Assembly (NCBI GenBank): GCA_001793155.1
Contig: MGHI01000040.1
Location: forward strand, 3,209 to 67,208
DNA length: 64,000 bases
Reading direction: 5' to 3'
Source of the DNA: Candidatus Woesebacteria bacterium RIFCSPLOWO2_01_FULL_39_61
Lineage (GTDB): Bacteria > Patescibacteriota > Microgenomatia > UBA8517
The position numbers were made by a program, and so were the translations under genes. This document shows, piece after piece, positions 37,594 to 62,655 of this stretch; the first letter of the stretch is position 1; each line of letters starts with the position of its first letter. The notes under the pieces are model-generated. The model was not told the origin of the DNA, made no database searches, and was given only the letters and a program-made list of their open reading frames with translations.

Positions 37594-37602
37594 AACTTTA
37601 CT

Positions 37603-38768: not shown

Positions 38769-38902
38769 CGTCAAACGTGGTAGACAAGCGCTTTCGTCTT
38801 TAATACAAAATTTCTGAAAGAAATTTTGAAAGAAAAGCTGGTAGAGCGGAAAGTATTTTGAAACGGCAGTGAAAGAATACGATCAGCAAACCTATCTTGA
38901 CG

Positions 38903-38950: not shown

Positions 38951-38987
38951 TTTATTTAAGTAAAGAAAATCGTAAATATGTTTAATA

Positions 38988-39074
38988 GGCGGGATGCTGG
39001 AGAGGTCTAACAGGCTGGTCTCGAAAACCATGCGCTTCGTAAGAGGTACGGGGGTTCGAATCCCTCTCCCGCCG
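38988..39074 (+). tRNA. tRNA-Ser (anticodon CGA)
   Basis: Manual fold: acceptor GGCGGGA/TCCCGCC, anticodon stem CTGGT/ACCAT with loop CTCGAAA, long variable arm, T-arm GGGGGTTCGAATCCCTC, discriminator G. Confidence 0.75.
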
Positions 39075-39115
39075 CAGGTAAAGGTGCGGGGCGAATCCTC
39101 TACCCACCGCCCACA

Positions 39116-39787: not shown

Positions 39788-39869
39788 AATGAGCTAAAAT
39801 ATAAAAACCTATAAAGTCATTACAAAATGGCTTTATATAACTCGTCGTAGGCTCAAGACGAGTTTCGTA

Positions 39870-40319: not shown

Positions 40320-40417
40320 CAAAAATTGCATTTGCAATTTTTGAAAGGAGAAGCCAGCGAAAAGCCAATATCCCGAGCTTGTCGAGGGATAAAGGCGTCG
40401 AAGCTAGGCTTCGACGC

Positions 40418-40774
40418 GGGGACGATACAAAAGGTTTCGACGGAAAACGTACTTTGAAATCTGCAAGCCGAGTATAACACTTCTCGTAAATCACGTGTTA
40501 AAAACATAATTGCTGATCGCGATTATAATTACGCCTACGCCTAAAAAACGGACGCGTTGTCTTGCCGGATACGATTCTCAACCGCGCTGGTGAGGCATAA
40601 ACCCAGTTGAGATGCGGAAAGTATGTCTGGTTTTATATACTTTCCCAAGATTTAAAACCAAATTCCTAACTTTTTCTTTGGTTTTTAATTTTAGGAATAA
40701 AACCAAAGCCAAATACGCTTGTAGAAGATTTTAAATTAGTTTTTCGGACGAGGGTTCGAATCCCTCCGTCTCCA
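40418..40774 (+). ncRNA. ssrA: tmRNA (ssrA)
   Basis: 5' GGGGACGATACAAAAGGTTTCGACGG (compare the canonical GGGGCUGAUUCUGGAUUCGACGG). 3' GGACGAGGGTTCGAATCCCTCCGTCTCCA forms the T-arm plus acceptor that pairs with the 5' GGGGACG. An internal tag-like frame GCT GAT CGC GAT TAT AAT TAC GCC TAC GCC TAA (ADRDYNYAYA-stop) is present; the exact resume codon is uncertain. Confidence 0.8.
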
Positions 40775-40840
40775 CACTTCGCTACTTTCAATATGAAAGT
40801 AGCTTCGCGTGGTAAACCACACAGTATTTAAAAACCTTCT
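40767..40840 (+). repeat. Direct repeat X: tmRNA 3' terminus plus downstream flank (also repeated at 42259..42320)
   Basis: CCGTCTCCACACTTCGCTActttcaatatgaaagtaGCTTCGCGtGgtaaACCACAcAGT versus 42259 CCGTCTCCACCACTTCGCTAatGCTTCGCGgtGcaagcACCACAtAGT. Confidence 0.45.
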
Positions 40841-45401: not shown

Positions 45402-47186
45402 TTAAATCTTTTCAACATTAAAAAGCGAGCTTTTTAATCCTACATATCCAGGAGCCCGAAGGTTGAAGGCTTTTTTAAATTCGTCACCTGCCACACTTAC
45501 ACTTCCCTTATTGGTAGAAAAAGTTACTGTCTGAGTTGATCCCGAATTTGAATACACAACGGATACACCGGTTACACTTGAATATCCGCCGATTGCCGCC
45601 AAATCAGATATCGAATAAGGATTTCCTTTCCAGCAATTTGTATCAACAGGAGAAATCCGGGAGGCATCCCCTCCTCCTTTATACAGAATTTGCCAGGCGT
45701 TAAGAATATCCGCCATTTCCGCTCCGGTAAGCCAGGGGTTACTCCTTCCGCAGGTAGATCCTCCCCGCGTTTTGTACCAAGCTTTATAGAACCAGGGAGA
45801 AGAGGCAGTCTTTTCATAAGCCTGACTAGGCCAATTCCCGCCGTCAGCATCCTTTATCCCGTTCCAACCCCACTGGGTAATGGTAAATCCACCGCTGGTT
45901 GAAGCATAATAAGTTGTTGCGGGGGTACCGCCGCGGGTAATTACCCAACCCCGGGTCGCCCGAACAGCCTCCGCCCACTTTCCGCTTTTTAGCTGAGGCT
46001 TATAAACCTGGCAGGACTCCGTCGGACAAATAGTCCCGGCACCATTATTTGTAACAGCCAAGGCGTATGACCTGGCAGAAACTGCCTGAGCTTTGAGTGC
46101 CTCCATGCCTCCGTTATCACCCCAACTCTCCGGCACCTCGTAAATTCCCAATAGATAATTCTCTTCGAAAGGTATACGTCCGTAACCCGTCACTCCGATC
46201 GTTGCCGGAACGGAATATCCTTTTGTAAGCTCCGCTCCCTGAAAATAAGCGGCTAAAATTGTTTCTGCGGATTGGCCCTTTTTGCTTCTTCCGTAAGCAC
46301 CATACTGACTTAGACCAGTCCGGTGCGGTGCTCCGAACGAAAATGCCGCATATGCCGGCCGAAAACCCGGGTCGCAGAAATTCGAAGATCCGGGAGGACC
46401 GGAACATGGTTCTAGGGTTGGCGGTGTGTCTCCAACCGAGGTTTGAAATCCTCCGGCCTTGAGTGCCAAAAGCTCCTCCTGTTTAGCGGATAAACTTGCC
46501 AAGTAATCTTCGGTTTTCGCCACCTCGCCAGCCAAAAAGGTGGCTCGCTCGTTGACTTTTTGCTTAAGAGCCGAGAGGTTGCTTTTATTCTTTTCGAGGT
46601 TTTCTTTATCTCCCTTAAGTTTAACTAAGTCCTGCCCGTATTTTTCCATTGTTAAAATATCCTCATTGGCAGCCTTTTTTCGGAACGCCAATTCTCGAAA
46701 GGCATCGGTTGCGTTTTGACTCGAGAGAAAGGGGGCAATGGGATCGTAAAATCTTATGAAGCGGTAGTGATTATTTGCTTTCTCCTCAAAAATTTCTTGT
46801 GCGTAGGCAAGGTCTTCTTCTCGATTCTCTATGTCGTTCTGGTTAATTGTAAGTTGGGTTGACAAACCATTGATACGTTTCTCGAGGCTGGCTAGCTGGG
46901 TTTTTAAATCTGACAATTCTTTTTTATTGTATTCCTGAGCCGGCTTTAGTGCGTTTATTTCCTGTTCAATTCTGGTAAGACAAAAATCAATATCACCCGG
47001 CCCAGGACTATCACAGTTTGGTTCAGCGGAAATAGTAGTAAGTTGTAAGTAGTAAGTTGTAAGAAGTAAGAGAGTTAACGCTAAGGTGAAACCGAGAGTG
47101 GATCGTATTTTCTTTGAAAATTTATTTATTTGAGAATTTTTTGTAAATTGTAAATTGTAAATTGTAAATTTCAGCATGTTCCCCAT
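45402..47186 (-). CDS. SpoIID/LytB domain protein with N-terminal coiled coil (cell-wall amidase enhancer-like)
   Basis: 594 aa. Signal peptide, ~200-aa coiled-coil region, C-terminal LKAQAVSARSYALAVTNN...YYASTSGG... SpoIID/LytB motifs. The 5' end of the CDS is built from (TTGTAAA)n and AGTAAGTTGTA tandem repeats. Confidence 0.65.
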   Translation of the reverse strand: MGNMLKFTIYNLQFTKNSQINKFSKKIRSTLGFTLALTLLLLTTYYLQLTTISAEPNCDSPGPGDIDFCLTRIEQEINALKPAQEYNKKELSDLKTQLASLEKRINGLSTQLTINQNDIENREEDLAYAQEIFEEKANNHYRFIRFYDPIAPFLSSQNATDAFRELAFRKKAANEDILTMEKYGQDLVKLKGDKENLEKNKSNLSALKQKVNERATFLAGEVAKTEDYLASLSAKQEELLALKAGGFQTSVGDTPPTLEPCSGPPGSSNFCDPGFRPAYAAFSFGAPHRTGLSQYGAYGRSKKGQSAETILAAYFQGAELTKGYSVPATIGVTGYGRIPFEENYLLGIYEVPESWGDNGGMEALKAQAVSARSYALAVTNNGAGTICPTESCQVYKPQLKSGKWAEAVRATRGWVITRGGTPATTYYASTSGGFTITQWGWNGIKDADGGNWPSQAYEKTASSPWFYKAWYKTRGGSTCGRSNPWLTGAEMADILNAWQILYKGGGDASRISPVDTNCWKGNPYSISDLAAIGGYSSVTGVSVVYSNSGSTQTVTFSTNKGSVSVAGDEFKKAFNLRAPGYVGLKSSLFNVEKI

Positions 47187-47272: not shown

Positions 47273-47737
47273 ATGAAAGTAAAAATTACAAAGATACTCA
47301 CCAGTATTTTTCTTTTTCTATTCCTACTATTCTCCTTTAACAAAGTTACCTATGCTGGTATTTTACCCGGACCCGAAAGATGTACTCCCTCAGGTGGTGG
47401 ATTTTGGGGGTGGATAACAGAAGCCAATACTGGTATTGATACTGCAATTGGTTGTATACCTCTTGAAATCGGATTCTTCGGATCTTCGGGTGGCGCCCGA
47501 TCTTTTACCGCTTTTATGCTCCGTTGGGCAGCCGGCCTCGGAGGAGGAATTGCTTTTATACTTATAGTCTATGCGGGTTTTATGATTACTACCGCAGCAG
47601 GCAATCCCCAACGTCTGCAGGCGGGAAGAGAACTCTTAACCTCTGCCATATCCGGTCTACTGATGCTTATCTTCTCTGTTTTTATCCTGAGAGTCGTCGG
47701 AATTGATATTTTGGGCTTAGATGCTCTCGGATTGTAA
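47273..47737 (+). CDS. T4SS pilin-like protein (VirB2/TrbC-like, CPR type), paralog 1
   Basis: 154 aa. Signal peptide, Gly-rich region, then ...YAGFMITTAAGNPQRLQAGRELLTSAISGLLMLIFSVFIL (hydrophobic-motif-hydrophobic) as in the following seven paralogs. Confidence 0.45.
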   Translation: MKVKITKILTSIFLFLFLLFSFNKVTYAGILPGPERCTPSGGGFWGWITEANTGIDTAIGCIPLEIGFFGSSGGARSFTAFMLRWAAGLGGGIAFILIVYAGFMITTAAGNPQRLQAGRELLTSAISGLLMLIFSVFILRVVGIDILGLDALGL

Positions 47738-47748
47738 TAGTCATCAAA

Positions 47749-48072
47749 ATGGATATTGAAATTGCAGGACTACCGTTTTCTGATTGGGAAACACAAACTC
47801 TCCCTTTATTAGCCAATCAACCAATAGGGACTGTAATTAATACTTTTATAAGATACCTTTTTCCTATCGCCGGATTAGTCCTTTTGGCTTATTTAATCTT
47901 TGGAGGTTACAAATATCTCACCTCCATGGGTGATCCCAAAAAAATTCAGGAGTCGAGACTAAATATTACCTACGCAATTGTTGGGTTTGCAATTTTGATT
48001 GCGGCATATTGGGTAGTTCTTGTTGCTGCAAGGGTTCTTAATATTCCGGCAATAAATCAAATATTTAGGTAG
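47749..48072 (+). CDS. T4SS pilin-like protein, paralog 2
   Basis: 107 aa. ...LVLLAYLIFGGYKYLTSMGDPKKIQESRLNITYAIVGFAILIAAYWVV... Confidence 0.5.
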   Translation: MDIEIAGLPFSDWETQTLPLLANQPIGTVINTFIRYLFPIAGLVLLAYLIFGGYKYLTSMGDPKKIQESRLNITYAIVGFAILIAAYWVVLVAARVLNIPAINQIFR

Positions 48073-48087
48073 TCACAAGATACTGTT

Positions 48088-48402
48088 ATGCAAAAAATTG
48101 CCATCGATTTTTCAAGCAACTTTTTCGGGGCACCGGGTCATTTTCTTTCCACCCTCACCGGCGTAGGCACCCTTGCCTCAGTACTTCTTGCCAACGCACT
48201 TATTATTGCAGGGGTAGTTTTTATACTGCTTATTATCATTGGCGGAATACAAATGATTAGTGGCGCCGGCAAATCTCCCCAAGAAGTGGCGCGGGGCAAG
48301 GAAATTATTCTCGCCGCTATTCTTGGTTTTATCATAATTTTTGTTTCCTACTGGATAGTAAGAATTATAGAAAGATCATTTGGTGTTAACATTTTGGGTT
48401 AA
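48088..48402 (+). CDS. T4SS pilin-like protein, paralog 3
   Basis: 104 aa. ...IIGGIQMISGAGKSPQEVARGKEIILAAILGFIIIFVSYWIV... Confidence 0.5.
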   Translation: MQKIAIDFSSNFFGAPGHFLSTLTGVGTLASVLLANALIIAGVVFILLIIIGGIQMISGAGKSPQEVARGKEIILAAILGFIIIFVSYWIVRIIERSFGVNILG

Positions 48403-48420
48403 AGATCGTACAATCAATTT

Positions 48421-48750
48421 ATGAATCCCTTTGGAACTATCGCCCCGCCCCCAGGAGTAGCCAGTTTTGGCGGAGGTCTCGGCGGTCTCCCCGCCTTTCT
48501 TAATGTAATATTTAAAACCTTAATTATGATTGCAGGAGTTTATACTCTTCTAAATTTTGTCTTTGCAGGATATACCTTTCTTTCCGGAGCCGGGGATCCC
48601 AAAAAGATTCAGGATTCGTGGGCAAAGATATGGCAATCTATTATTGGACTAACGGTCGCAGCCGGATCTTTCGTGCTGGCGGCGCTTTTAGGACTTTTAC
48701 TTTTCAGGGATTCAAATGCAATACTCCAACTAAGAATCTTTGGACCTTAA
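48421..48750 (+). CDS. T4SS pilin-like protein, paralog 4
   Basis: 109 aa. ...FVFAGYTFLSGAGDPKKIQDSWAKIWQSIIGLTVAAGSFVLA... Confidence 0.5.
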   Translation: MNPFGTIAPPPGVASFGGGLGGLPAFLNVIFKTLIMIAGVYTLLNFVFAGYTFLSGAGDPKKIQDSWAKIWQSIIGLTVAAGSFVLAALLGLLLFRDSNAILQLRIFGP

Positions 48751-48771
48751 CTTTGAAATTTTGCATATAAA

Positions 48772-49143
48772 ATGAACCAGTTATCAATATCTATACCAAT
48801 AGGAAATTTAAGAGGCACAGGGCCGCTGGGTTTTGAGAATGTATCCTCTACACGCTCTGTTGGTTATATTCTAAATCAGGTTATATCCGTTTTGGTTGGG
48901 GCAATGACGTTATTTGCAACAATTTGGTTTTTGATCTTATTAATCACGGCTGCGTACAGCTGGATGAATGCGGGAGGGGATAAAGTGGCACTCGAGAACG
49001 CAAGACAAAAAATGTTACATGCAGTAATAGGCCTGACGATTGTCATCGTGGCAATTTTTGTTGCCGACTTTATCGGCTTTATTCTCGGCGTTCCGGACAT
49101 TTTGAACGTCGAAGGATTCATAACCAGAATACTAAATCCCTAA
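48772..49143 (+). CDS. T4SS pilin-like protein, paralog 5
   Basis: 123 aa. ...LITAAYSWMNAGGDKVALENARQKMLHAVIGLTIVIVAIFVA... Confidence 0.5.
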   Translation: MNQLSISIPIGNLRGTGPLGFENVSSTRSVGYILNQVISVLVGAMTLFATIWFLILLITAAYSWMNAGGDKVALENARQKMLHAVIGLTIVIVAIFVADFIGFILGVPDILNVEGFITRILNP

Positions 49144-49146
49144 GTT

Positions 49147-49521
49147 ATGATAACTTTTATTCCATCGGTTATCTACGCACAAGTATATCAACCGCCGGCA
49201 AGGCGAATTGTAAACCCTTTATTAAATGTAACTCTTCAAATATTAAGTGGGAATATTTTTATTTCACGCTTTCTTCCAGCTCTTTTAACTCTGCTTTTTG
49301 TTATCGGTTGCATTTATTTTCTTTTTATATTTACCCTGGGGGCAATCCAGTGGATCAATTCAGGGGGGGATAAAGTAAAACTTGAACAAGCAAGGGACAG
49401 GGTTACACAGGCGGTTATCGGATTGGGAGTTCTTTTGTCTGTCTATGGTGTTTTAAGTCTTCTGGAGTACTTCTTTGGAACGAATCTCAGGTCCTTTAAC
49501 ACCAACAGTATTAGGATTTAG
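49147..49521 (+). CDS. T4SS pilin-like protein, paralog 6
   Basis: 124 aa. MITFIPSVIYAQ signal. ...GAIQWINSGGDKVKLEQARDRVTQAVIGLGVLLSVYGVL... Confidence 0.5.
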   Translation: MITFIPSVIYAQVYQPPARRIVNPLLNVTLQILSGNIFISRFLPALLTLLFVIGCIYFLFIFTLGAIQWINSGGDKVKLEQARDRVTQAVIGLGVLLSVYGVLSLLEYFFGTNLRSFNTNSIRI

Positions 49522-49596
49522 GCGTCTAATTCAAAGCTAAATTACCTCTTGACAAGTGCCAATCGCTAACTTCATAATGACTATTAAGATAAATAT

Positions 49597-49944
49597 ATGA
49601 CAACTTTTCTGCCATCAACGGTTTTTGCACAGATAAATCTTACGCCTCGAGGACAGTTTACAACATTAAACAGTATAACTATCGGTAATATAATTTCTGC
49701 AATTATTATACTTGTTTTAATTGTTGCAGCTTTAGTCTTTTTCTTCATGCTAGTTTGGGGTGGCATTAAATATATAACATCGGGTGGTGATAAGGCCCAG
49801 ACAGAAGCAGCAAGAAGTCAAATTACAGCAGCTTTAATCGGTTTGGTGATAGTTTTTGCCGCTTGGGCTATTATAAATTTGGTTAACCTATTCTTCGGAA
49901 TAAACATACTTAACTTAAATATACCTAACGCGCAAGCTCCGTAA
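49597..49944 (+). CDS. T4SS pilin-like protein, paralog 7
   Basis: 115 aa. MTTFLPSTVFAQ signal. ...VWGGIKYITSGGDKAQTEAARSQITAALIGLVIVFAAWAIINLV... Confidence 0.5.
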   Translation: MTTFLPSTVFAQINLTPRGQFTTLNSITIGNIISAIIILVLIVAALVFFFMLVWGGIKYITSGGDKAQTEAARSQITAALIGLVIVFAAWAIINLVNLFFGINILNLNIPNAQAP

Positions 49945-49960
49945 AGCTAGGGTTAGGGTA

Positions 49961-49984
49961 AGCCCCGAAAGGGGCTTTTTTTTT
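49961..49984 (+). terminator. Rho-independent terminator
   Basis: AGCCCC-GAAA-GGGGCT followed by T8 (49977-49984), 17 nt after the stop of pilin paralog 7. Confidence 0.8.
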
Positions 49985-50047
49985 GGCAGGAAAAAATGCC
50001 TGGAGAATGTTATTGCCCCATTTCCCATCTTGCGTTACACTTAATTT

Positions 50048-50368
50048 ATGATTCCTTTGAATCCTTGCACTAACCCTGATTATGTAAGAGGTACCGTACC
50101 AACCTTGGCTTATCTCGAATGTCTATTTGGAAGAACAGCCAATATTATCTTGGGTTTGGCAGGAATTGCACTTTTTATTATGTTACTCATCGGTGGTTTT
50201 AGGTATATGACGTCAGGAGGAGATCCCAAAGCGCTTGATTCCGCCCAAAAAACCATTACCTATGCTATTATCGGGCTAGTTCTCACGGCTAGCTCCTATC
50301 TCTTCTTGCGCTTTGTCGGAGCAATAACCGGAGCTGATGTTTTTAATTTTTATATTTTCCGCCCCTAA
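50048..50368 (+). CDS. T4SS pilin-like protein, paralog 8
   Basis: 106 aa. ...LLIGGFRYMTSGGDPKALDSAQKTITYAIIGLVLTASSYLFL... Confidence 0.5.
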   Translation: MIPLNPCTNPDYVRGTVPTLAYLECLFGRTANIILGLAGIALFIMLLIGGFRYMTSGGDPKALDSAQKTITYAIIGLVLTASSYLFLRFVGAITGADVFNFYIFRP

Positions 50369-50371
50369 TCT

Positions 50372-53182
50372 ATGAGGCTGCCTACTACAAAAATAGGATT
50401 ACTTCTAGAAACGCTTCTTTTTTTAATTATTATTATATTTTCAGTTAAGACGGCGAAGGCTCAAATTCCCCCGCCCTACGTTCCTTGTAATCAAGTAAGA
50501 AGTCCGGAGTTTCATTCATTACGTCCTTACCAAGCCAGTCCCTGCAACCAAGAAGCAACCGAGCTTGCTTTATATTGCGACAGTAGCTTTGTTCTACCTG
50601 ATACTTTTGTTATTGACAAAACGTTTTCAAATCCACCCACCAGCTGGGTTTATTCATACCTTGGCAATCCAATATCACCCGTGCGTCCTGAGGACTCTTT
50701 TAATCAACCTGCGTGCAGGTTCTGTGTGGGAAATTTCTGTGCTGTAAGTTTGGGAACAGCCTGTGTTGCCGACCTAAACCAGTGCCAAACTAATACAGAT
50801 TGCTTCAACAGCTGCAGAAACAATCTTGACGGCACCGAGACGTGCACTTTCCTCGTTAACCGAGAAAGAGACGTTGCGATTGATCTGTCCGGGGCAGAAT
50901 TCCCAATAATGGGAAATACCCAGGACGTTATAAATAGCCAAAACCTGTGGGGTAATAGCCTGCCTTTTGACGTCTTTGATGTTTCGGAACCGTTGGATGC
51001 TTACGACCCCACCAAAGTGAACGAGTATGTGAGTTGGTACCTTAACGGAATAATAAACAGGGCTGAATACAAAACTCTTGATCCCGATGACCCCAATGAC
51101 TTTCTTAAAATTACTGACTTCTCCGGACCCATAAGAAAATTACTCTCCTTTGAGAACCAAATTACCCAAAGGGTAAGTCAAATTAATGAAGCTAATGAAG
51201 GCGACGTTCGCCACAATCAGGTCGTGGGCTGTGACAATCTTACCGGTAACCCCACAGAGTGCTATCCACAGAGAGCTGGAGTAAGGGAAAGGAGACTGAG
51301 AGATTGGCTTCCCAACAACCTTCCGCCCTTAAGGGAAGCTTTTGATAACTTCTCAGACTACTGGGGGGCCTATACTGACTGGAGAAATGGAAATCCACGC
51401 TTTATCGGCAACCTCTTCGACTATATTCCCTTTTCTTCAACCGAGGACAGGAAAGGGCTCGACGAGGCAGTTTTTCAGTCTATTCAACCGGCTCAACCTT
51501 ACGTAAGAATTGTCTCGGCCACCCTTACCCAAACTCCGGCTGACTTATTCTTTGCCCACATCGAAGAAACCGCAGGATTGGCTAATATTCTTCAGAAAAC
51601 TTTCGCTTTTCGAGGGGCGGCTTTAGACGGTCCTCCTGCCAATATCGCGCCTCCGGCAAATGCCTACTGCGACCTGGTCGAGGTAAGAAGCAACCCCGGA
51701 GATGATCTTTTTGCCGGGGAAATTCGCGTCCACCTCGAATACGAGGCACAAATTGACTGTAGTTTCCTCATCCCTTATCTCTGGCCGAATCCTGCCGAAG
51801 GAGTGCCTCCCGGAAATGTCTGTGAGAATCTGGCCGGGGGAACATGTCAGTACATTCCAGAAAATTATCAGTGTGATTACGTCTATGGGCCAGTAGATTG
51901 TCCACCAGATCCACTTAACCCTGAAGTTATATACTGTGCCGTCAATTGCCGTCCACTATCAAACACCGCGGCCTGTGCCGATCTCGGCAAACAGTGCTAT
52001 CCAAGCACTTGGGGATCCTGTACTGGTGTCACCGAAAATGTTTTTGTCTGCCCAGCCGGTGTTGACTGTACTGCCGTTATTTGCCAGGCGGGCAGCTTTT
52101 GCGACGGTGACGGTTGTTTGCCGGGATCCTTTTGTGCAAATAATTACTGTCCTCCGGGTTATGATTGTTACGATAATCCCTGCTCGGGGTCAGATGTCTG
52201 CGCCAACGGTTGTGTCCAGCCAATCACTGAGCCAAACCTGACCCAGCAGTGTCCAGTTACTGTCAACGTTAATCTCGGTACAGTTACTCATACCCCGAAA
52301 GCCGACGAGCTTTGGAGCCGATTTGTTTCGGGTCCGGCCGGGATCTTCAGAAGAGTATTCCCTAAGATAGAACCCGGTGCGCCGATTGAAGCCTTGTGGG
52401 ACATTCCGGCTTCGACACCGGTAACATTCACCGCCCCGGGACTGGTGTATGTCGGAATTCCGGGATCAGGACGTACCCAGCCCGAGCTTTACTTCCCCCA
52501 CATAGGAGGAATCCACCAATATTTCTTAAAATGTATTCAAAGAGCTCTAAGGCCGCAGGGATTCGGAGAGCCCTGCATATCGGGCTCCCCCGGCACGAAT
52601 GCGCCGACCGATAGCACCTGTCCCAATGTTCCCGATTCCGCAATACCAGCCAGGTGGATCGGGCCTGCAGGATCAGGAATAAAAGACCATTTTATATGGG
52701 CGGCGGATCTTTGGTGCGGGGGGGTTGGAGAGAATATGGCTGAAGAGTGTTATAACTACGTAGTTCAACAATCATTGGCGGCCGGAGTAAACCCCGCCTT
52801 TTCACTTTCCATCTGGCTTCATGAGTCGGCAGCCAGCAATTATACCTGCAGCGGTGCCGGTGCCCAGGACTTTGGTATAAATGATCCGTCGATTGCCATG
52901 AACCTGGTTCTGCAACTTCAGCGTTTCCTTACTCTACCTTACTCAAGCACATATCTTTACTGTCGTACGCAGGCACAATCCCGCGGCCTTGATCCCATGT
53001 TCGGATTTCTGGATCGTTTCCGTGACGGTAATTGTGATTTTGTTCAAAATGGATCCAATGCCGGGTGGAGTTTTTATCAAAACATGATGAGCTTTGCTTG
53101 GCCTTTAGTTACTGAGCCCATAAGAAATTGTGTAACAGGCTGGTTTGGGATATTGTGGCCTACCGACTTTGCCTGTCCGTAA
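50372..53182 (+). CDS. Large Cys-rich secreted protein with C-terminal lysozyme-like/lytic-transglycosylase-like region (candidate T4SS-associated cell-wall hydrolase or pilus adhesin)
   Basis: 936 aa. Signal peptide (LLLETLLFLIIIIFSVKTAKAQ), about 70 Cys including clustered CxxC-rich stretches (residues ~480-620). The C-terminal ~130 aa (...NPAFSLSIWLHESAASNYTCSGAGAQDFGIN...) resemble the ES...S/GAxG catalytic region of SLT/lysozyme-like domains. Confidence 0.45.
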   Translation: MRLPTTKIGLLLETLLFLIIIIFSVKTAKAQIPPPYVPCNQVRSPEFHSLRPYQASPCNQEATELALYCDSSFVLPDTFVIDKTFSNPPTSWVYSYLGNPISPVRPEDSFNQPACRFCVGNFCAVSLGTACVADLNQCQTNTDCFNSCRNNLDGTETCTFLVNRERDVAIDLSGAEFPIMGNTQDVINSQNLWGNSLPFDVFDVSEPLDAYDPTKVNEYVSWYLNGIINRAEYKTLDPDDPNDFLKITDFSGPIRKLLSFENQITQRVSQINEANEGDVRHNQVVGCDNLTGNPTECYPQRAGVRERRLRDWLPNNLPPLREAFDNFSDYWGAYTDWRNGNPRFIGNLFDYIPFSSTEDRKGLDEAVFQSIQPAQPYVRIVSATLTQTPADLFFAHIEETAGLANILQKTFAFRGAALDGPPANIAPPANAYCDLVEVRSNPGDDLFAGEIRVHLEYEAQIDCSFLIPYLWPNPAEGVPPGNVCENLAGGTCQYIPENYQCDYVYGPVDCPPDPLNPEVIYCAVNCRPLSNTAACADLGKQCYPSTWGSCTGVTENVFVCPAGVDCTAVICQAGSFCDGDGCLPGSFCANNYCPPGYDCYDNPCSGSDVCANGCVQPITEPNLTQQCPVTVNVNLGTVTHTPKADELWSRFVSGPAGIFRRVFPKIEPGAPIEALWDIPASTPVTFTAPGLVYVGIPGSGRTQPELYFPHIGGIHQYFLKCIQRALRPQGFGEPCISGSPGTNAPTDSTCPNVPDSAIPARWIGPAGSGIKDHFIWAADLWCGGVGENMAEECYNYVVQQSLAAGVNPAFSLSIWLHESAASNYTCSGAGAQDFGINDPSIAMNLVLQLQRFLTLPYSSTYLYCRTQAQSRGLDPMFGFLDRFRDGNCDFVQNGSNAGWSFYQNMMSFAWPLVTEPIRNCVTGWFGILWPTDFACP

Positions 53183-53215: not shown

Positions 53216-53641
53216 ATGAATAAACCAATAACTAAATTTTCAAATAAAAGAAAATACGACCTGGAAGAAAGAACGGCCAGATTTGCAGAAAATGTTATAG
53301 GTTTGGTAAAACAAATACCTGTCAATCCAGTCAATAAACGGATTATAGAACAACTCGTAGGAAGCGCGGGTTCTCTAGGAGCAAATTATTGCGAAGCGAA
53401 TGAGGCTGAAAGCAAAAAGGATTTCATCCACAAAATAGGAATTTGTAAAAAGGAGACTAAAGAAGCGAAACACTGGCTAAGATTGCTAAAGGTGTCTGAC
53501 CACGAGTATGAATTAGGTGTTGAGCCCTTATCAGAAGAGGCTCAAGAACTACTTCTAATTTTTTCTTCAATTAACCAGTCTGCGAAACGCAAAAGTATTG
53601 AAAATTATTATTTGAAAAATTCGTTGAAAATTGAATCTTGA
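53216..53641 (+). CDS. Four-helix-bundle protein (23S rRNA IVS protein / Avd-like fold family)
   Basis: 141 aa. YDLEERTARFAENVIGLVKQIP...IIEQLVGSAGSLGANYCEANEAESKKDFIHKIGICKKETKEAKHWLRLL matches the family pattern (F...L..Q..RA..SI..NIAEG......KD...FL.IA.GS..E....L.L). Confidence 0.6.
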   Translation: MNKPITKFSNKRKYDLEERTARFAENVIGLVKQIPVNPVNKRIIEQLVGSAGSLGANYCEANEAESKKDFIHKIGICKKETKEAKHWLRLLKVSDHEYELGVEPLSEEAQELLLIFSSINQSAKRKSIENYYLKNSLKIES

Positions 53642-53658: not shown

Positions 53659-55392
53659 GTGCTATTATTTAATTACAAAATGTTTAAGAAACTGCTTTTA
53701 ATTTTTCTTTCTGTAAATATTCTCCTTCTAAGCGGCTTTTCTCCTTTTGTCCGATCGGCCCGCGCACAAGAATCCACTTGGTTCAGGCAAAGTTTTTATG
53801 AGTGGTATACAAAAGTCTATGATACCGACGCAACTCCTGCCGACGAAATTTACGGGGAACGCTACACCGCAGCCCAGGTTGAATGGGTCATATATGGAAT
53901 TTGGGCGTTTTGGGTTAACCAATTTATAGTACCCGATGTTGCCGCTTGCCTTTTTGCAGCCGTTAGTGATCTAGATGACTTGGGCACCTGTTTAATCGAT
54001 AGTCTTACACAACTTTTTGAAGATCTTCTTGACAGAATCACTTACAATCCGAACAACATAAATCCCGCTTTAGCTCTAGACCACTACTCCAAACCTCTTC
54101 CTTCCATGGTCTTTGAGAGCCGTCCTCTTTCTGGAATCACCTATGTAAAAGATAAGTTTAATTTGGTTGGCGAGGTTTATGCACAGCAGGGTTTTGGCTT
54201 TAGCAGACTTGAATTCATACAGCCCTTATGGCAGGCCGCACGCGATATCAGTTTCTTCTTCTTGGTTCTGGCAACAGTTATTATGGCCTTCATGATCATG
54301 TTTAGAGTCAAGCTCTCGCCCCAAACCGTAATCAGCATACAGTCGGCCATACCCAAGGTAGTTATGGGGATTATACTTATCACTTTCTCCTATGCTATTG
54401 CAGGTTTTATGATTGATCTTGTTTACGTAACCATAGGTTTACTTGCGTCCATGTTCGATTTAGCCATACCGGACGTACCTGGAATCGTCCAGTCCGGCAT
54501 CTATTACAGACTAATGACCGAGGGCATCCCTTTTATCGGACTTGGTGCTTTTGGACTCATGATTCTTTATCTGCCCATGTTTTTTATCTCCTTCACCATT
54601 GCCATTGTCGGAAATCTAGGAGTATTAAACCTTTTAGGGATTTTTGCGATAGCGCCCTTGATATCGATGGTTGTTACTCTCATCGTTTTGTTCGTACTTC
54701 TTTTTATAACCATAAAAATTCTTTGGATGTTAATAAAAACAGTTGTTGCAATTTTCTTACTTGTTATTTTCGGACCTGTCTATATCTTGGGCGGGGTAGT
54801 CTTTCCCTCTTTTGGGTTTGGCAGCTGGATTAAACAACTGGCTTCCAACTTGGCTGTCTACCCCGTAGCCGGAGCTATGTTTATCCTATCTTATATGTTT
54901 TTAGTTTGGGGAAGTTTTGTGGTGTTTTTAGATTTGTTTAATATAGATACCTGCGATCCCGGGCTCAACCCCTTGACGCACCTTTTAAATCAAATATTTA
55001 ATGCTTTGGGTTTCAACGCTTGTGTATCAGGGAACGTATGGCAACCACCTCTAACTTTAAATGGCGCCCCGGGTGGCACTGCTACTGGCTTAATTTTCTG
55101 CTTTGTAAGTTTGTCAATTCTATTTTTGATTCCAAAGACAGCGGATATCATTAAGGGTTTGATCTCCGGCCGTCCATATGCCTACGGAACCGCAATCGGC
55201 GAAGCGTTTGGCCCTGCAGCAATGGGTGCCGCGGCGGGTTGGGGATATATATCTGGCGGCCCCGCCGCCAAACTAAGAGCAGTTCAAGAAGGCAGAATTA
55301 CCCTGTCTCCAGAAGTCCAGGAACGTTATAGAAGAATGGATAGGATATACGGCTTAATTAACCAAGTAACTGGCTTCGGAAGAAGAAAGTAG
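53659..55392 (+). CDS. Polytopic membrane protein, candidate VirB6/TrbL-like T4SS channel component
   Basis: 577 aa. Signal/anchor, then about 8 TM helices spread over the protein with Gly-rich loops. Topology resembles TrbL/VirB6 family proteins. No sequence motif was confirmed. Confidence 0.35.
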   Translation: MLLFNYKMFKKLLLIFLSVNILLLSGFSPFVRSARAQESTWFRQSFYEWYTKVYDTDATPADEIYGERYTAAQVEWVIYGIWAFWVNQFIVPDVAACLFAAVSDLDDLGTCLIDSLTQLFEDLLDRITYNPNNINPALALDHYSKPLPSMVFESRPLSGITYVKDKFNLVGEVYAQQGFGFSRLEFIQPLWQAARDISFFFLVLATVIMAFMIMFRVKLSPQTVISIQSAIPKVVMGIILITFSYAIAGFMIDLVYVTIGLLASMFDLAIPDVPGIVQSGIYYRLMTEGIPFIGLGAFGLMILYLPMFFISFTIAIVGNLGVLNLLGIFAIAPLISMVVTLIVLFVLLFITIKILWMLIKTVVAIFLLVIFGPVYILGGVVFPSFGFGSWIKQLASNLAVYPVAGAMFILSYMFLVWGSFVVFLDLFNIDTCDPGLNPLTHLLNQIFNALGFNACVSGNVWQPPLTLNGAPGGTATGLIFCFVSLSILFLIPKTADIIKGLISGRPYAYGTAIGEAFGPAAMGAAAGWGYISGGPAAKLRAVQEGRITLSPEVQERYRRMDRIYGLINQVTGFGRRK

Positions 55393-55485: not shown

Positions 55486-58400
55486 TTAAGGAGTCGGTGT
55501 TGTAGTCTGAACTGCTCGCCTCTTCTTTTTCTCTTCATCTATTCGTCTTTGTTCTTCTTCGAAAGCTTCGATTTCTTTTGCCATTTTCTTCGATATACCC
55601 CTTCTTGATCTCTCTCGTGGAGCAAAAAGCGTTCCTTCTATATAAATGTCGTATAAAAGGTTCCAATCACTTGTTAATACATCTCTTGCGTGCAACGAGT
55701 CGTAAAGTTGTTTACGCCGTTCTGGGCTCATAAAAAATCGATTATCGGAAAGTACGGAGGTTACTATAGCATTATATGCAGACTCGGGAATATCAAGTAT
55801 TGTTTCTGCTTGTCCGGTAACAAACCCCTTTTCTGGGCTCATTATTAAAGCTGTTGCTCCGAGAAGATAGGCACGATCGGTAAATATCGGAGCCAATTTT
55901 GCATCCCCCCTAACTTTAATCCACTTATCAAGAAAGGATTCCCTCGACAATCTTTTCTTGGGATCCCCGCTCATTTGGTGCCCCTCAAGTGCCACAACAG
56001 CACTGCCAACATCCCAATAATAACCCCACCATTCACCAGCCCTAACTTCATCAAGCACTTTACCGGCGTTTTCATTTCCATTTTCAGTCAGATCAACAAG
56101 CTCAATCGGAACTTCTTTTGTGATTGTTTTTTGTCCTTTTTCAAATTTGATCACGGCTTTTTGTGCAGTCTCGATTGGCACTGCCCTAACATACCTTTCT
56201 TTATCTATAAGTACGTCTGCTATTGAAGTTGATGGGTGCCTGCTTCTTTCTCCCGTCTGCGGATCTGCATATTCTTGCCCTCCCGTATCAATCATCTCCA
56301 ATACACTGTAGAACATCCTCTCCGGAATATAATCTCTTTCGCCTTCGTCAAATTCTTCCCTGAAAGTCGTTCCCTTTTTGGTTTTTCTATCCTTAACACT
56401 GTAATTTTCCCTTGTCCACTCACCTAGGGGACCACCGTATGCGCGTTCTGCGTTTAAGGTTCGTTCCATATCAGCCGCTTTCCGCTCTGCCTCGTCAAGC
56501 TTGTCGGGTGCTATCCGTCCAGCAGCCACATCCTCTCGTATCCGCTTTATCTCTGCCGACTTTCTTTCAAATCTCTTTCTGGCAGAAAGTCGTTCTTTTA
56601 GTTTAAGTCCCGGTGAAAAAAGTTCTCTTACTCCATCCGAAATTGTAGCCGATTCCTGTAGCTTTATAGCATAATCTTTGCGTGTGGGATCATCCTCCTC
56701 CTTAATAGCCTCTGTTTGTGCTCTGTAGACGTCTCCCGAATCATAAGCGCCGGTAGCGTAAAAAAGGTCATCGGCGGCATGAACGGAGGTTTGAATTAAA
56801 TCTTCTACTGTAACCCGATGATCTGTTGCCCATTTTCTAGCTTCTTCCACTTCTTTCTGGTGGTTCTCTAGATTTCTTTCTGCTTTAGTTATTTCCGCAT
56901 CAACATCTTCCCCCTGTACTTTTCTTGTTTTTAAGCTCTCCAATTCATCAATTGATTTCTGCAACCCCTGGTCGCTGAGTCTTTCAGACATCGCCTTCGT
57001 TAAAGCCTTTCTATAAGCGTCAAGGTTCTTTTTATCTGATAAAAGCTGATAGCCTGTTTCCGATAATACAAATTGTTTGAAGTTGAAACCTGTAGCAAAA
57101 TTTAATTTTTCAACCTTCTCTTGCACCTTAACAAGCTCGTCCCCTTGAAATTCTCCCCTTTGTATCTTTTCGGTTAATGTTTTTGCTTCTTCGGCTGCCT
57201 CGGCCCCTACTTTGTCCGGAAAATCTTGGAACACGTCTTTTGCAAGGGTTAAAACCGCCATTCGAAATCCGGGTGTATTATCCCAAGCCTCCCTGAAATA
57301 TTCGCGGGAAAGCCTGGCTCCCTGGGCTTCGATCCAATTTTCGGACGTTTTTGCTCCGGTTAACTCTTTAATATATGAAAGGTAATTGAGCTGTAAAAAT
57401 AGTCTGATTGAATCCTGATATTTCTCCCTATCCTCGTTACTTATCCGGGTGCCGTCCGGTCTTTGTTCAAACCTGAACCAGTACGGGTTGCTCGAATCAA
57501 ACCCTTCGGGGTTTGTAAAAGCCCTGTGCTTCATCGCGTGAACAACGGCCTCGTAACCGGAAAGAAGCGCTCGGTTTTGCTCTACTGCCATCCTATATTG
57601 ACCCTCGGTAAAGTCAGCCATTTTCTTTAATTGTTCAAGCAGTGCATCTCCAGCCACGGCCCCACCAGTAGCAACTTCTGGTTTTCTGTATTTACCCTTT
57701 CCTTGAATAAAGTCGGAGGCGTCTTTTTTTAACTGCGGTCTTTCCTTACCCCATCGTTCGAGATCAATGGTTTTTCCGTACCTGTCAAGGTATAATTTCG
57801 CTTCTTCTGCCACCTTTCTATATTCAGTGGCAGTTTTGGTGTCTCCCGCAGCTTCTGCAGCCAGAGCCGCACCTGGGTAATATTCAAGTTGTGCTTCAGC
57901 AAGATGAAACTCCATTTGATCTAACGCTCCTCCGATATAGGCCGAAGACATTCCCCCAAAATCAACGGTTGATCGATTCAAACTTCTGGTTTCTACTCTA
58001 TGTAGTTCAGATGCGTTTCTACCAAGACCGCCAATTACATCCATTGCATCTATGTAATCATTATCCATTTGAGCCTTTTTTATTTGTACGTTAATCCCCC
58101 GAACCTCACCCGACACCGGATCTGTATGTCTAAAAATTCCAGCGGCTTTTGCTGACTGGACTAAAACTTCATCTCGGGCAAATTTCAGTCCTTCTACCGC
58201 CTTAGCAACCTCATCATCCGTTAAATTTTGTCCGTTTACTGTAAACCCACTTGGTGTATCAACTAAACCCAATAGTCTATTCTGAATTAAAAGAAATAGA
58301 CTTTCGTTGGGATCCTGGGCTTTTTCTCTGTTGATTTCTTCAATTATCCCCATTAACTTTTCGCTGTCTCTAAACTCTACATGTAAGGCTCCGATTGTGG

Positions 58401-58689
58401 CCTTTTCTAAAACTTCCCTGTACACAAGCTTCTTTTCATCAGATAGTGTACCTCCTTCAAATAGTAGAGCCTTCGTGTTTTTTTCCTGAAGCCTATCTAT
58501 ATATTCCCTTCTAGACATAGACCTTTTTTCAATGTCCCCAAGAATTGCATCCATCCTCTCTGAATCAGGATCGTTACCAATATATCTCTTACCCTCTAGT
58601 TTTCCGCTACTTGGTTCCCAACTGGTGGTCGCAATTTTTATATCTGGTCGTCCTTCTCCTTCTGGTCCGTCGCTCATTTTTCCTTTCAC
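55486..58689 (-). CDS. Large hypothetical soluble protein (1067 aa), no TM segments, function unknown
   Basis: The ORF track starts at GTG (58689). The ATG (MSDGPEG) lies 4 codons in. Preceded by the RBS GAAAGGA and a TTCACA-N16-TATAAT promoter. Charged, helix-rich, no recognisable catalytic motifs. Confidence 0.5.
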   Translation of the reverse strand: MKGKMSDGPEGEGRPDIKIATTSWEPSSGKLEGKRYIGNDPDSERMDAILGDIEKRSMSRREYIDRLQEKNTKALLFEGGTLSDEKKLVYREVLEKATIGALHVEFRDSEKLMGIIEEINREKAQDPNESLFLLIQNRLLGLVDTPSGFTVNGQNLTDDEVAKAVEGLKFARDEVLVQSAKAAGIFRHTDPVSGEVRGINVQIKKAQMDNDYIDAMDVIGGLGRNASELHRVETRSLNRSTVDFGGMSSAYIGGALDQMEFHLAEAQLEYYPGAALAAEAAGDTKTATEYRKVAEEAKLYLDRYGKTIDLERWGKERPQLKKDASDFIQGKGKYRKPEVATGGAVAGDALLEQLKKMADFTEGQYRMAVEQNRALLSGYEAVVHAMKHRAFTNPEGFDSSNPYWFRFEQRPDGTRISNEDREKYQDSIRLFLQLNYLSYIKELTGAKTSENWIEAQGARLSREYFREAWDNTPGFRMAVLTLAKDVFQDFPDKVGAEAAEEAKTLTEKIQRGEFQGDELVKVQEKVEKLNFATGFNFKQFVLSETGYQLLSDKKNLDAYRKALTKAMSERLSDQGLQKSIDELESLKTRKVQGEDVDAEITKAERNLENHQKEVEEARKWATDHRVTVEDLIQTSVHAADDLFYATGAYDSGDVYRAQTEAIKEEDDPTRKDYAIKLQESATISDGVRELFSPGLKLKERLSARKRFERKSAEIKRIREDVAAGRIAPDKLDEAERKAADMERTLNAERAYGGPLGEWTRENYSVKDRKTKKGTTFREEFDEGERDYIPERMFYSVLEMIDTGGQEYADPQTGERSRHPSTSIADVLIDKERYVRAVPIETAQKAVIKFEKGQKTITKEVPIELVDLTENGNENAGKVLDEVRAGEWWGYYWDVGSAVVALEGHQMSGDPKKRLSRESFLDKWIKVRGDAKLAPIFTDRAYLLGATALIMSPEKGFVTGQAETILDIPESAYNAIVTSVLSDNRFFMSPERRKQLYDSLHARDVLTSDWNLLYDIYIEGTLFAPRERSRRGISKKMAKEIEAFEEEQRRIDEEKKKRRAVQTTTPTP

Positions 58690-60435: not shown

Positions 60436-60822
60436 ATGACTATTCCCTCCCAAGTCACTAGCTACAAAAAATTACAACTATATCAGAAGGCCAGGCTTTT
60501 AGTTCTTAAAACATACCAGATTACATCCTTATATCCAAAGTCAGAATTGTATTCATTGGTTCCTCAGATGCGAAGATCAGCCATGTCTGTACTTGCAAAT
60601 ATTGTAGAAGGATATTCAAAAGAAAGCGCACCTGAATATGCCAGATTTTTAACTATTTCTATCGGATCTATAACTGAACTCGAGGTTTATTTAGACATCT
60701 CTTTAGATTTGGGTTACCTTTCAAAAGATAAACTTGATAAAATGAATACAATAATAATTGAAGTAAAAAGACTTTTGTACGGATCAAGAAAAAGGGCTCG
60801 AGAAAAGATAAGTATAAAGTAA
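60436..60822 (+). CDS. Four-helix-bundle protein (23S rRNA IVS protein / Avd-like fold family)
   Basis: 128 aa. LQLYQKARLLVLKTYQITSLYPKSELYSLVPQMRRSAMSVLANIVEGYSKESAPEYARFLTISIGSITELEVYLDISLDLGYL is a strong match to the family consensus. Confidence 0.7.
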   Translation: MTIPSQVTSYKKLQLYQKARLLVLKTYQITSLYPKSELYSLVPQMRRSAMSVLANIVEGYSKESAPEYARFLTISIGSITELEVYLDISLDLGYLSKDKLDKMNTIIIEVKRLLYGSRKRAREKISIK

Positions 60823-60856: not shown

Positions 60857-61882
60857 ATGGATCAAGAACACCCGATACCGCAACAAATTTCAGCCTATCA
60901 ATTCAGGCTGGTCGGAGATATGACCTTGAAACAGTTTTTTCAGGTTGCTGCCGGAGTTTTAATTTCTTTGGTTATTTATTCTTCGGGTCTGACGCCGTAT
61001 ATTAAATGGCCGCTGATAATCCTTTCATTTTTGGCGGGCATTGCTTTTGCCTTTTTTCCGCTTGAAGATAGACCGCTCTCTAAATGGCTTTTCCTTTTTG
61101 TAAAAGCAATATACTCTCCTACAATTTATACCTGGAAAAAAAAAGTTGTCGAACCTCAGTTTTTCCAACCCGAACCGATTTCTCAGCCTACTTCGATGCC
61201 TCAAACACCTGCCATAGAGGATTTGGCAACTAAACAGGCTCCTGTACCAAGTCTGGAGCCTTCTCCGAAGGAGTTTCAAAAATTTGAACAGCGCGAAAAA
61301 GAATTTATGTCAAAGGTGTCGGAACAATTTGAGTCAGCAAAAAAAGTTGAACTTGGCGGGAAAGCTCCACGACAAGTTCCTCTGGATAATGATAAGGTTA
61401 AGGTTCCCCAAGTTCCGGCCCTGACGGTCGAAAAGACAGAGAAAAAGCCCGTCGTTCCAATCCCGGAACTTAGCGTTTCGGACGTCGGAAGCGAAATAAC
61501 CGCTTCCGTCGGACAAAGAATGAACGAGGTTAAACTCGCGGAATTTTCTCCGGAAGCAGCACCCCCAACCCCTCCCACAAAATCCAACATTGTTGTGGGA
61601 CAGGTCATAGATTCAAAAGGCATGATTATTGAAAATGCAATTCTTGAAATTAAAGATCCTGAAGGCCGTTCGGTAAGAGCTCTCAAAAGCAACAAGCTAG
61701 GGCACTTTATGATTGTTACGCCTTTGGCAAACGGTAAATATGAGATAATAACTGAGAAAGAAGGGTTTACCTTTGAACCGATATCCTTTGAAGCAAGAGG
61801 AGATATTATACCACCGGTTTTCGTCAAAGCCAATCAAATTGAAGCTAATCTAGCTACTAATCAACCAACAATGGTTAACTAA
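60857..61882 (+). CDS. Membrane protein: N-terminal PrgI/VirB3-like TM hairpin, Pro-rich linker, C-terminal carboxypeptidase-regulatory-like beta-sandwich
   Basis: 341 aa. ISAYQFRLVGDMTLKQFFQVAAGVLISLVIY...PLIILSFLAGIAFAFFP resembles PrgI-family proteins that precede VirB4 in Gram-positive-type T4SS. The C-terminal VVGQVIDSKGMIIENAILEIKDPEGRSVRALKSNKLGHFMIVTPLANGKYEI resembles the CarboxypepD_reg fold. Confidence 0.4.
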   Translation: MDQEHPIPQQISAYQFRLVGDMTLKQFFQVAAGVLISLVIYSSGLTPYIKWPLIILSFLAGIAFAFFPLEDRPLSKWLFLFVKAIYSPTIYTWKKKVVEPQFFQPEPISQPTSMPQTPAIEDLATKQAPVPSLEPSPKEFQKFEQREKEFMSKVSEQFESAKKVELGGKAPRQVPLDNDKVKVPQVPALTVEKTEKKPVVPIPELSVSDVGSEITASVGQRMNEVKLAEFSPEAAPPTPPTKSNIVVGQVIDSKGMIIENAILEIKDPEGRSVRALKSNKLGHFMIVTPLANGKYEIITEKEGFTFEPISFEARGDIIPPVFVKANQIEANLATNQPTMVN

Positions 61883-61896: not shown

Positions 61897-62565
61897 ATGG
61901 CAATACCTTTTCTAAGTACTCCTGATAAAACAATTCTTTCAACCACGCAGGACCTTATTCCTTTAGCTGATATTGTCGACGGAGTTGTGATCTATAAAAA
62001 CGGAGGCGCTGCCCAAATCATGGAATCAACTTCTCTTAATTTTGGCCTCTTAAGCGAAAACGAACAAGAAGCAGTTATTGCATCATATGCGGGACTTCTT
62101 AACTCTTTCAATTTCCCAGTCCAAATCGTGGTCAGGTCACAAAAAAAGGATATCTCTATTTATATGAATTTCTTAAACGAAGCCCAATCTAAAATTAATA
62201 ATCCAAAATTGATTCATATAATGGAAGACTATAAAAATTTTATAGCCGAAGCGATTAAAAAGAAAAATGTGCTTAGTAAAAAGTTCTATATCGTGGTTTC
62301 CTTTTCTCCTTTCGAACTAGGATTAGGAAAGTCTTTAGTAACAACTTTTAGGCCATCGAAAAAAGGGGCACTCTTACCATTTCCCAAATCCTACGTTGTA
62401 AGAAAAGCAAAAATTGCTCTTTTCCCTAAAAGAGAACACTTAGCAAGACAGGCAAGAAGATTAAATATTCAGCTAAAACCCCTGTCGAACGAAGACCTTA
62501 TCCGACTTTTTTATAATACTTATAACCCTGAACCTCCTGTAAAGGAAATGGGGATTCTGGGATAA
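61897..62565 (+). CDS. VirB4/TrbE N-terminal domain-like protein (CagE_TrbE_VirB-like), in frame with the downstream ATPase ORF
   Basis: 222 aa. DLIPLADIVDGVVIYKNGGAAQIMESTSLNFGLLSENEQEAVIASYAGLLNSFNFPVQIVVRSQ follows the VirB4 N-domain pattern (L..D.I..L.DGS....I..G..FEL..E.E.......FN.LL......V.IY..LVR). Terminated by a single TAA. Confidence 0.4.
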   Translation: MAIPFLSTPDKTILSTTQDLIPLADIVDGVVIYKNGGAAQIMESTSLNFGLLSENEQEAVIASYAGLLNSFNFPVQIVVRSQKKDISIYMNFLNEAQSKINNPKLIHIMEDYKNFIAEAIKKKNVLSKKFYIVVSFSPFELGLGKSLVTTFRPSKKGALLPFPKSYVVRKAKIALFPKREHLARQARRLNIQLKPLSNEDLIRLFYNTYNPEPPVKEMGILG

Positions 62566-62655
62566 GCTGCTGCGGAATTGATACTGCAGCAGTCTCGAAC
62601 TTTGTGTGAGACTAGCTTGTTCACTCCTCGCCCAAAGGCGAGTTTGAATAAATAT

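Follow-up and report, generated by a model that had tools for sequence, protein, structure and literature searches.

A predicted exported, cysteine-rich protein with a putative lysozyme-like C-terminal domain, encoded after a pilin array in a Woesebacteria type IV secretion-like locus

The few Patescibacteria in culture cannot live as epibionts without pili that resemble a type IV secretion system (T4SS). According to published work on monoderm bacteria, their T4SSs have multidomain VirB1-class hydrolases, e.g., PrgK, TraG, and Orf14, and the active domain of PrgK is a muramidase (PMC12857230). For Patescibacteria themselves, a 2025 survey reports that VirB1 homologues are rarely located near virB4 outside Paceibacteria and that VirB6 is scarce in Microgenomatia, most clusters of which yielded neither protein. 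It proposes that a VirB2 pilus may not need VirB1, but leaves room for "other glycosidases" in its place (PMC12102498).

The present analysis concerns a 936-aa protein encoded in a 64,000-nt stretch of Candidatus Woesebacteria bacterium RIFCSPLOWO2_01_FULL_39_61 (contig MGHI01000040.1, positions 3,209 to 67,208, forward strand), hereafter referred to as the window. An earlier inspection of the same DNA (the sequence-only reading) had described a 936-aa open reading frame (ORF) directly after a pilin array, and both statements hold: the ORF is real, and its ATG lies 3 nt past the stop codon of the eighth pilin gene. With moderate confidence, the protein is interpreted here as a Sec-exported, disulfide-stabilised component of a T4SS-like apparatus with a VirB1-like peptidoglycan glycosidase.

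50372-53182 (+): ORF of the 936-aa Cys-rich, predicted exported protein, stop codon included

The C-terminal domain and its classes across the family

52589-53179 (+): C-terminal "type A" lysozyme/SLT-like domain, aa 740-936 (197 aa), with a helical core at about 770-914
52823-52825 (+): Glu818 codon (putative catalytic acid; C-terminal end of helix 808-819; next residue Ser819)
52868-52870 (+): codon of the invariant Asp833 (DFG motif), a possible second catalytic or substrate-positioning carboxylate

On the basis of its fold model, motif I, and the invariant Glu818, the C-terminal tail very probably belongs to the lysozyme/SLT superfamily, as a divergent member that has kept its catalytic Glu. 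The AlphaFold2 (AF2) model of the tail is all-alpha (pLDDT 92, pTM 0.90), and its top 33 Foldseek matches in the PDB, each individually weak, are all lysozyme-superfamily enzymes: g-type lysozymes of cod, salmon, and goose, MltF, MltC, MltD, and MltE, Slt enzymes, a GH73 endolysin domain, and a GH23 chitinase. Among them, the strongest match has E=0.04 and a probability of 0.87 (TM-score 0.4-0.5). The full-length model recovers the same two top matches and nothing else credible.

Helix 808-819 has Glu818 at its C-terminal end, as part of an SLT-type motif I (GVNPAFSLSIWLHES). All 87 unique type-A tails share five residues without exception, W815, E818, S822, D833, and G835, and in 86 of the 87 E818 is followed by Ser or Thr. 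The type-A tail also carries an invariant ASNY...QDFG, a terminal WPTDxxCP, and 3-4 putative disulfides. The tail is predicted to be enzymatically active and to cleave a glycan bond, as either a hydrolase or a lytic transglycosylase; the invariant Asp833 would fit a hydrolase.

These results agree with the sequence-only reading, which had likened the C-terminus to lytic transglycosylases or lysozymes and had quoted the string SLSIWLHESAASNYTCSGAGAQDFGIN, corresponding to residues 811-837. Neither of the outcomes that it had named as refuting, a C-terminus without a lysozyme-like fold and a catalytic Glu that varies among homologues, was observed: the fold matches are to the lysozyme superfamily, and Glu818 is present in every type-A tail.

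Among homologues the C-terminal 150-330 aa differ in kind: while the core stays constant, the enzyme domain at the C-terminus has been exchanged between 6 or more sequence classes. Clustering of 162 tails gives six classes, with 93 members in class A, to which the window protein belongs; the type-A tail is also found in 79 of the 120 best homologues. Class A is linked to the small class F (E=3.5e-5). Class B corresponds to Pfam SLT_3, with matches above the gathering score, and occupies the same C-terminal slot in paralogous members. Classes C, D, and E are interlinked at E<=3e-4 and have near-threshold SLT_2/SLT matches. When the combined C+D profile is compared with the PDB, 20 of the 23 hits are lytic transglycosylases or g-type lysozyme (MltC with E=0.004, followed by SltB, EtgA, and MltE), and the single invariant Glu of the profile falls on the catalytic ES of MltC. 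As for class A, hhalign aligns it with C+D over 40 columns (E=0.03) and places E818 on the invariant Glu of C+D. The catalytic ES of MltC lies in "YGVDESLILAIMQIES", compared with "AGVNPAFSLSIWLHES" in the window protein, and by eye the register is exact between "GVNPAFSLSIWLHESAASNY" of the window and "GVDESLILAIMQIESSFNPY" of MltC.

By sequence, the tail is not a member of any curated family. A Pfam scan of 30 type-A tails returned no SLT, SLT_2, SLT_3, SLT_4, or Glucosaminidase match at E<=1, only noise (e.g., MTTB and Cas1). Three candidate identities were also considered and set aside. The only PDB match of the 30-member type-A profile is a GH20 enzyme with E=0.76, which is spurious. A likeness to hen egg-white lysozyme (HEWL; E35...D52-Y-G-I) is a resemblance only: in the hhalign comparison D833 falls on D52, but with E=0.17 over no more than 16 columns and without bringing the Glu into register. 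Finally, hhalign once aligned the type-A tail with SLT_3-type tails with the ES in register (E=0.07); larger alignments did not repeat this result (E=0.9), which is not used as evidence of homology.

Export signal, conserved core, and cysteine-rich inserts

50372-50461 (+): N-terminal signal peptide or membrane anchor, aa 1-30, with a hydrophobic helix at 5-22 and AKA/Q (the slash marks the predicted cleavage site)
50468-52588 (+): conserved family core, aa 33-739, with very long beta-strands plus helices
50669-50851 (+): Cys-rich insert 1, aa 100-160, 8 Cys
51758-52252 (+): Cys-rich insert 2, aa 463-627, 22 Cys, a beta-hairpin-tip expansion
52049-52213 (+): five tandem 11-residue units C-x-x-G-x-x-C-x-x-x-x, aa 560-614

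The export call comes from a hydropathy scan and inspection rather than from a dedicated signal-peptide predictor. The N-terminal hydrophobic helix at aa 5-22, followed by AKA/Q, fits Sec export, in line with the secretion proposed by the sequence-only reading; the 936-aa protein would thus be exported by Sec and its signal peptide cleaved. An "AQ.P.PYVPC" consensus near the N-terminus is kept across homologues.

The protein contains 46 Cys (4.9%). The other 54 ORFs of the window have 76 Cys combined (~0.45%), and this one protein accounts for ~38% of all Cys encoded in the window. Given such a Cys-poor genome, the enrichment of ~11-fold indicates that the Cys richness is not due to chance. 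Several details of the sequence-only reading have to be revised. It had counted ~70 cysteines, many of them in CxxC/CxC stretches; the protein in fact has the 46 given above, a single CxxC (C115-C118), no CxC, and 9 His (~1%). The Cys-dense stretch that it had placed at ~480-620 is present, with 22 Cys at aa 484-627 and a spacing of C-x4-to-x12-C. It had also envisaged a hydrolase fused to a separate giant Cys-rich module, in place of which two expandable loop inserts are found within a core of ~700 aa.

Cys parity was counted on an alignment of 73 homologues. Insert 1 ranges from 15 to 68 aa and contains 2, 4, 6, or 8 Cys, an even number in 72 of the 73; insert 2 ranges from 12 to 165 aa with 2-22 Cys, even in all 73. 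From residue 33 to the end, 69/73 homologues have an even total (p about 2e-16), and parity is near-perfect in every insert size class. That counts stay even while the inserts grow argues for disulfides rather than metal sites, so the cysteines are predicted to be paired with each other. CxxC occurs 0-3 times per homologue, and His makes up ~1%.

According to the full-length AF2 model (pLDDT 86), insert 2 sits between the long strands 450-466 and 624-642, which identifies it as an expanded hairpin tip. The five 11-residue units within it are modelled with lower confidence (pLDDT 55-66), and no DNA-level tandem repeat underlies them. The two inserts are the fastest-evolving parts of the protein among its closest relatives (~70% identity): they are 40-58% identical and differ by indels of >50 aa, compared with 75-96% identity for the core and ~80% for the tail. 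At residue 614 (nt 52211-52213) the window encodes the final Cys of the 11-residue repeats, in place of which cluster representative P0001, from the same 90% cluster and otherwise identical to the window protein, has Arg. C614R is either a sequencing difference or a natural variant that makes the number of Cys odd.

As for the core, its strands in the AF2 model are ~20 residues long, and a local Foldseek search gave no PDB fold match to it. The full protein has no Pfam match at E<=10, including EGF, furin-like, TNFR, GCC2_GCC3, and similar Cys-rich families, and no NCBIfam match; neither phmmer nor the family profile finds a PDB sequence match, the only PDB hit of the profile being midkine (E=2.5, not significant). 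In BFVD, the 50 best Foldseek hits include ~45 maturation proteins (pilus-binding proteins) of single-stranded RNA phages. These hits (probability <=0.04, TM-score <=0.14, root-mean-square deviation about 30 Å) are not counted as evidence, and solved maturation proteins are absent from the PDB fold search results. The pattern probably reflects the bias of long beta-strands together with database composition.

An exhaustive profile search of 1.84 billion representatives assigns 900 clusters (50% identity) to the family, 782 of them with E<=1e-10. Hundreds of homologues were retrieved, and where they carry names these are hypothetical proteins of Woesebacteria, Microgenomates, or Patescibacteria; the family appears to be confined to Woesebacteria/Microgenomates. 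No paper describing it was found in a literature search. Some homologues add an N-terminal NAGPA phosphodiester glycosidase domain (PF09992). Extra modules are seen in homologues P0013, P0117, P0028, and P0093 and at loci L011 and L013, and some family members have an additional unannotated region of ~300 aa with "GPNEP" and "TETG" strings, which we take to resemble motifs of clan GH-A glycosidases.

Gene neighbourhood

47273-50368 (+): eight VirB2-like pilin genes (PF18895), directly upstream of the Cys-rich gene
53659-55392 (+): 577-aa polytopic membrane protein with at least 8 transmembrane (TM) segments, a candidate divergent VirB6-like subunit
60857-61882 (+): PrgI/VirB3-like protein with a CarboxypepD_reg-like domain
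61897-64000 (+): TrsD/TraC-like protein (61897-62565) and, from 62656 off the window, a VirB4-type ATPase with Walker A SGAGKS
45402-47186 (-): SpoIID/LytB-domain protein with a coiled-coil N-terminus, divergently oriented, a second predicted glycan-cleaving enzyme

The T4SS context claimed by the sequence-only reading is borne out both by the pilin, PrgI-like, TrsD-like, and VirB4 genes of the window and by synteny across 64 species-level loci, at which the family protein has 24-46% identity. At least 6 pilins lie upstream of the family gene in 47/48 loci, the most frequent number being 8 (33/48); the polytopic protein is encoded downstream in 48/58 and VirB4 in 37/43, and the SpoIID gene is divergent in 43/45. 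The near-universal order is thus pilin array, family gene, polytopic VirB6-like protein, PrgI-like protein, and VirB4. The 577-aa polytopic protein has no Pfam or NCBIfam match and is a candidate for the highly divergent "missing" VirB6 of Microgenomatia. A bPH_2 protein, a DUF5657 protein, and a 649-aa protein are also encoded divergently upstream.

The pilin genes are small and encode two-TM proteins. Five of the eight were scanned against Pfam, all matching PF18895, and the other three were assigned by a pilin hidden Markov model and cross-locus orthology. Across about 55 species (loci L006-L068) the eight pilins are positionally orthologous: each array position best matches the same window paralogue, in the same order, and the pilin adjoining the Cys-rich gene is of the "pilin-8 type" in 52/55 loci. 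Such positional orthology argues for eight old, specialised pilins, forming a heteropolymer or a major pilin plus minor ones. Pilin copies have been suggested to serve antigenic variation (PMC12102498), whereas the ordered orthology seen here argues against recent copies. A strong terminator-like hairpin (AAGCCCCGAAAGGGGCTT followed by a T-run) at 49960-49977 parts pilin 7 from pilin 8. Since the gap between pilin 8 and the Cys-rich gene is 3 nt and contains no terminator (50366-50374), these two genes may form a coupled unit of their own.

Two genes for four-helix-bundle proteins of the 23S_rRNA_IVP / bAvd-like type lie within the T4SS block, at 53216-53641 (+; 141 aa) and 60436-60822 (+). 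Other loci also have the one that precedes the PrgI-like gene, whereas its counterpart shifts position between loci. A 1067-aa protein without Cys, TM segment, or Pfam or NCBIfam match is encoded at 55486-58689 (-), and related loci have a protein of ~770-920 aa at the same position and strand. Many GTDB representative records of metagenome-assembled genomes with the Woesebacteria-type T4SS block (L006-L008, L010, L012, and others) are titled "uncultured Gammaproteobacteria bacterium"; these titles are evidently placeholders or mislabels.

Elsewhere in the window, a run of ~ten tandem genes at 17700-30351 (-) encodes proteins with 8-12 TM segments, several of them GT87-type glycosyltransferases, and also one GT2 enzyme, which suggests an expanded envelope-glycan glycosylation cluster. 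At 34925-40775 a large serine recombinase gene adjoins four tRNA-Ser genes, one tRNA-Arg gene, SmpB, and tmRNA (tag ADRDYNYAYA); this region could be an integration hotspot.

Proposed role, rival explanations, and comparison with known systems

According to the interpretation favoured here, the ~100-kDa protein would be exported by Sec and then oxidatively folded. Its ~700-aa core would serve as a rigid scaffold built on the ~20-residue strands, with up to about 23 disulfides stabilising the protein, and its two hairpin-tip loop inserts would have expanded into hypervariable, exposed disulfide knots. The tail would act as a divergent lysozyme/SLT glycosidase, with Glu818 as the general acid and Asp833 as a possible second carboxylate, and would cleave peptidoglycan glycan strands locally. 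Such VirB1-like wall opening would let the pilus or the secretion channel pass a cell wall, which may be the cell's own or that of a host, the protein being presumably in physical association with one or the other.

Several results weigh against this interpretation. The tail has no significant sequence match to the Pfam SLT families, the PDB, or HEWL, its hhalign comparison with SLT_3-type tails is not significant, and the link of class A to classes C and D amounts only to the E=0.03 over 40 columns given above. The SpoIID/LytB protein of the same locus could supply the wall-opening role. No Dsb, VKOR, or thioredoxin gene was found among the Pfam-scanned ORFs of the 64-kb window, and a literature search on Dsb/VKOR in the Candidate Phyla Radiation and on PF18896 returned nothing relevant. 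Patescibacteria are described as having no respiratory chain (PMC12857230), which leaves the oxidising source for ~23 disulfides unexplained.

The rival explanation that survives best, a possible though unlikely one, is that the protein is a host-directed tip lysin or adhesin, docked on the VirB6-like platform or on the pilus tip by analogy with VirB5 or with pertussis toxin on Ptl. In that case the disulfide knots would bind the host surface, and the tail would breach the wall of the host at the point of contact instead of the cell's own. The gene does lie between the VirB2 array and the VirB6-like gene, the place of virB5 in virB operons, and it goes closely together with the conserved "pilin-8" paralogue. 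The rapid divergence of the Cys-rich inserts, with which the adhesin idea of the sequence-only reading is compatible, points in the same direction, and the swapping of the enzyme domain among at least 6 classes on a constant core, together with the NAGPA domains added in some homologues, looks like an arms race. Variable tails, however, could equally track changes of the cell's own wall; moreover, no fold likeness to VirB5/TraC or to known adhesins is seen, and no immunity-like gene is adjacent.

A fuller and more doubtful picture places the protein at the tip of the Patescibacterial T4SS pilus, as its working part: a Sec-exported, disulfide-armoured stalk on the VirB6-like platform, ahead of eight specialised pilins, whose hypervariable Cys-knots would recognise the host and whose swappable lysozyme-family head (at least 6 classes) would cut host peptidoglycan and open a conduit between epibiont and host. 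If this were true, the protein would combine VirB1 and VirB5 in one hybrid of new fold, and an organism that has no respiratory chain would be making its disulfides.

It is improbable that the protein is a structural, non-catalytic part that spans or anchors in the wall, with a tail that only binds glycan and a core that belongs to a channel or stalk, in the manner of VirB8/9/10 in a monoderm cell. The ~20-residue core strands would suit such a part, as would the stronger conservation of the core than of the tail across the family, the fact that VirB8 homologues are mostly undetected in Patescibacteria, and the lack of SLT-family membership by sequence. The tail speaks against it: Glu818-Ser/Thr819 and Asp833 are strictly invariant in the 87 type-A tails, and a Glu is invariant in every other tail class, which is what catalysis, and not binding, predicts.

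Very improbable is a general wall-remodelling enzyme that merely adjoins the T4SS genes; SpoIID and other wall enzymes are indeed encoded nearby, but the order of pilins, family gene, and VirB6-like gene is kept in nearly all 64 loci down to 24% identity, and only 3 nt separate the gene from the last pilin. The idea of metal-binding (Zn or Fe-S) or redox modules built from the cysteines, which the sequence-only reading had offered beside the disulfides that even parity supports, can practically be dismissed: despite the high Cys density, metal binding is very unlikely because of the one CxxC, the ~1% His, and the extracytoplasmic location, and the absence of CxC, the 0-3 CxxC per homologue, the near-perfect parity in every insert size class, and the lack of any Pfam metal-binding domain even at E<=10 also speak against such modules.

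In comparison with known systems, the likeness to VirB5 is positional only. Like VirB5 and the pertussis toxin of Ptl, the protein is predicted to be Sec-exported, has variable regions that would lie at the surface, and is encoded between pilin and VirB6-like genes; PMC12857230 describes the VirB5/VirB6 model as well as the analogy with Ptl. In contrast to VirB5 (~220 aa, a three-helix bundle with a globular appendage), it is about four times larger and has an enzyme domain, and no VirB5/TraC structure or three-helix-bundle match occurs among the PDB fold or sequence hits.

As for SLT_3 (PF18896) and the GH23 enzymes (MltC, MltE, Slt, EtgA, and goose egg-white lysozyme), the tail occupies the C-terminal slot that is filled by SLT_3 in paralogous members. 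With GH23 it shares motif I, "GV(N/D)xxxxLxIxxxES", in register with MltC, and the position of the Glu at the C-terminus of a helix, and its best fold matches are GH23 enzymes. It differs from both in giving no significant profile match and in missing the GLMQ and AYNxG motifs. The GH73 glucosaminidase scores as well as GH23, so the tail may have either bond specificity.

The closest functional counterparts would be the VirB1-class hydrolases of monoderm systems (PrgK of pCF10, TraG of pIP501, Orf14 of Tn916, and CwlT of ICEBs1), which are likewise encoded in T4SS loci, multidomain, and extracytoplasmic, with an N-terminal signal or anchor and a lysozyme/SLT-superfamily glycosidase domain that bears a catalytic Glu. 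In contrast to them, the glycosidase domain is here C-terminal and missed by the Pfam SLT models, it is fused to a ~700-aa core, predicted to be disulfide-rich, without known relative, and the gene follows a VirB2 pilin array; to our knowledge, other monoderm T4SSs have no such array. No domain of the VirB1/TrsG/CD419 kind and no CHAP, NlpC/P60, or LytM partner domain is found in the 936-aa protein by Pfam or NCBIfam.

The ~900 clusters of unannotated proteins, sharing a ~700-aa core without known fold, thus provide a concrete and near-universally syntenic candidate for the missing VirB1-like hydrolase of Microgenomatia, next to a candidate for VirB6. About 23 putative disulfides in a Cys-poor organism without quinone-linked respiration pose a biochemical puzzle, and host specificity becomes accessible to tests through the way in which hypervariable knots and exchangeable enzyme heads are combined with a conserved core. 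Compared with the described systems, the family would represent a VirB1-like function in an undescribed architecture, built on an unprecedented core.

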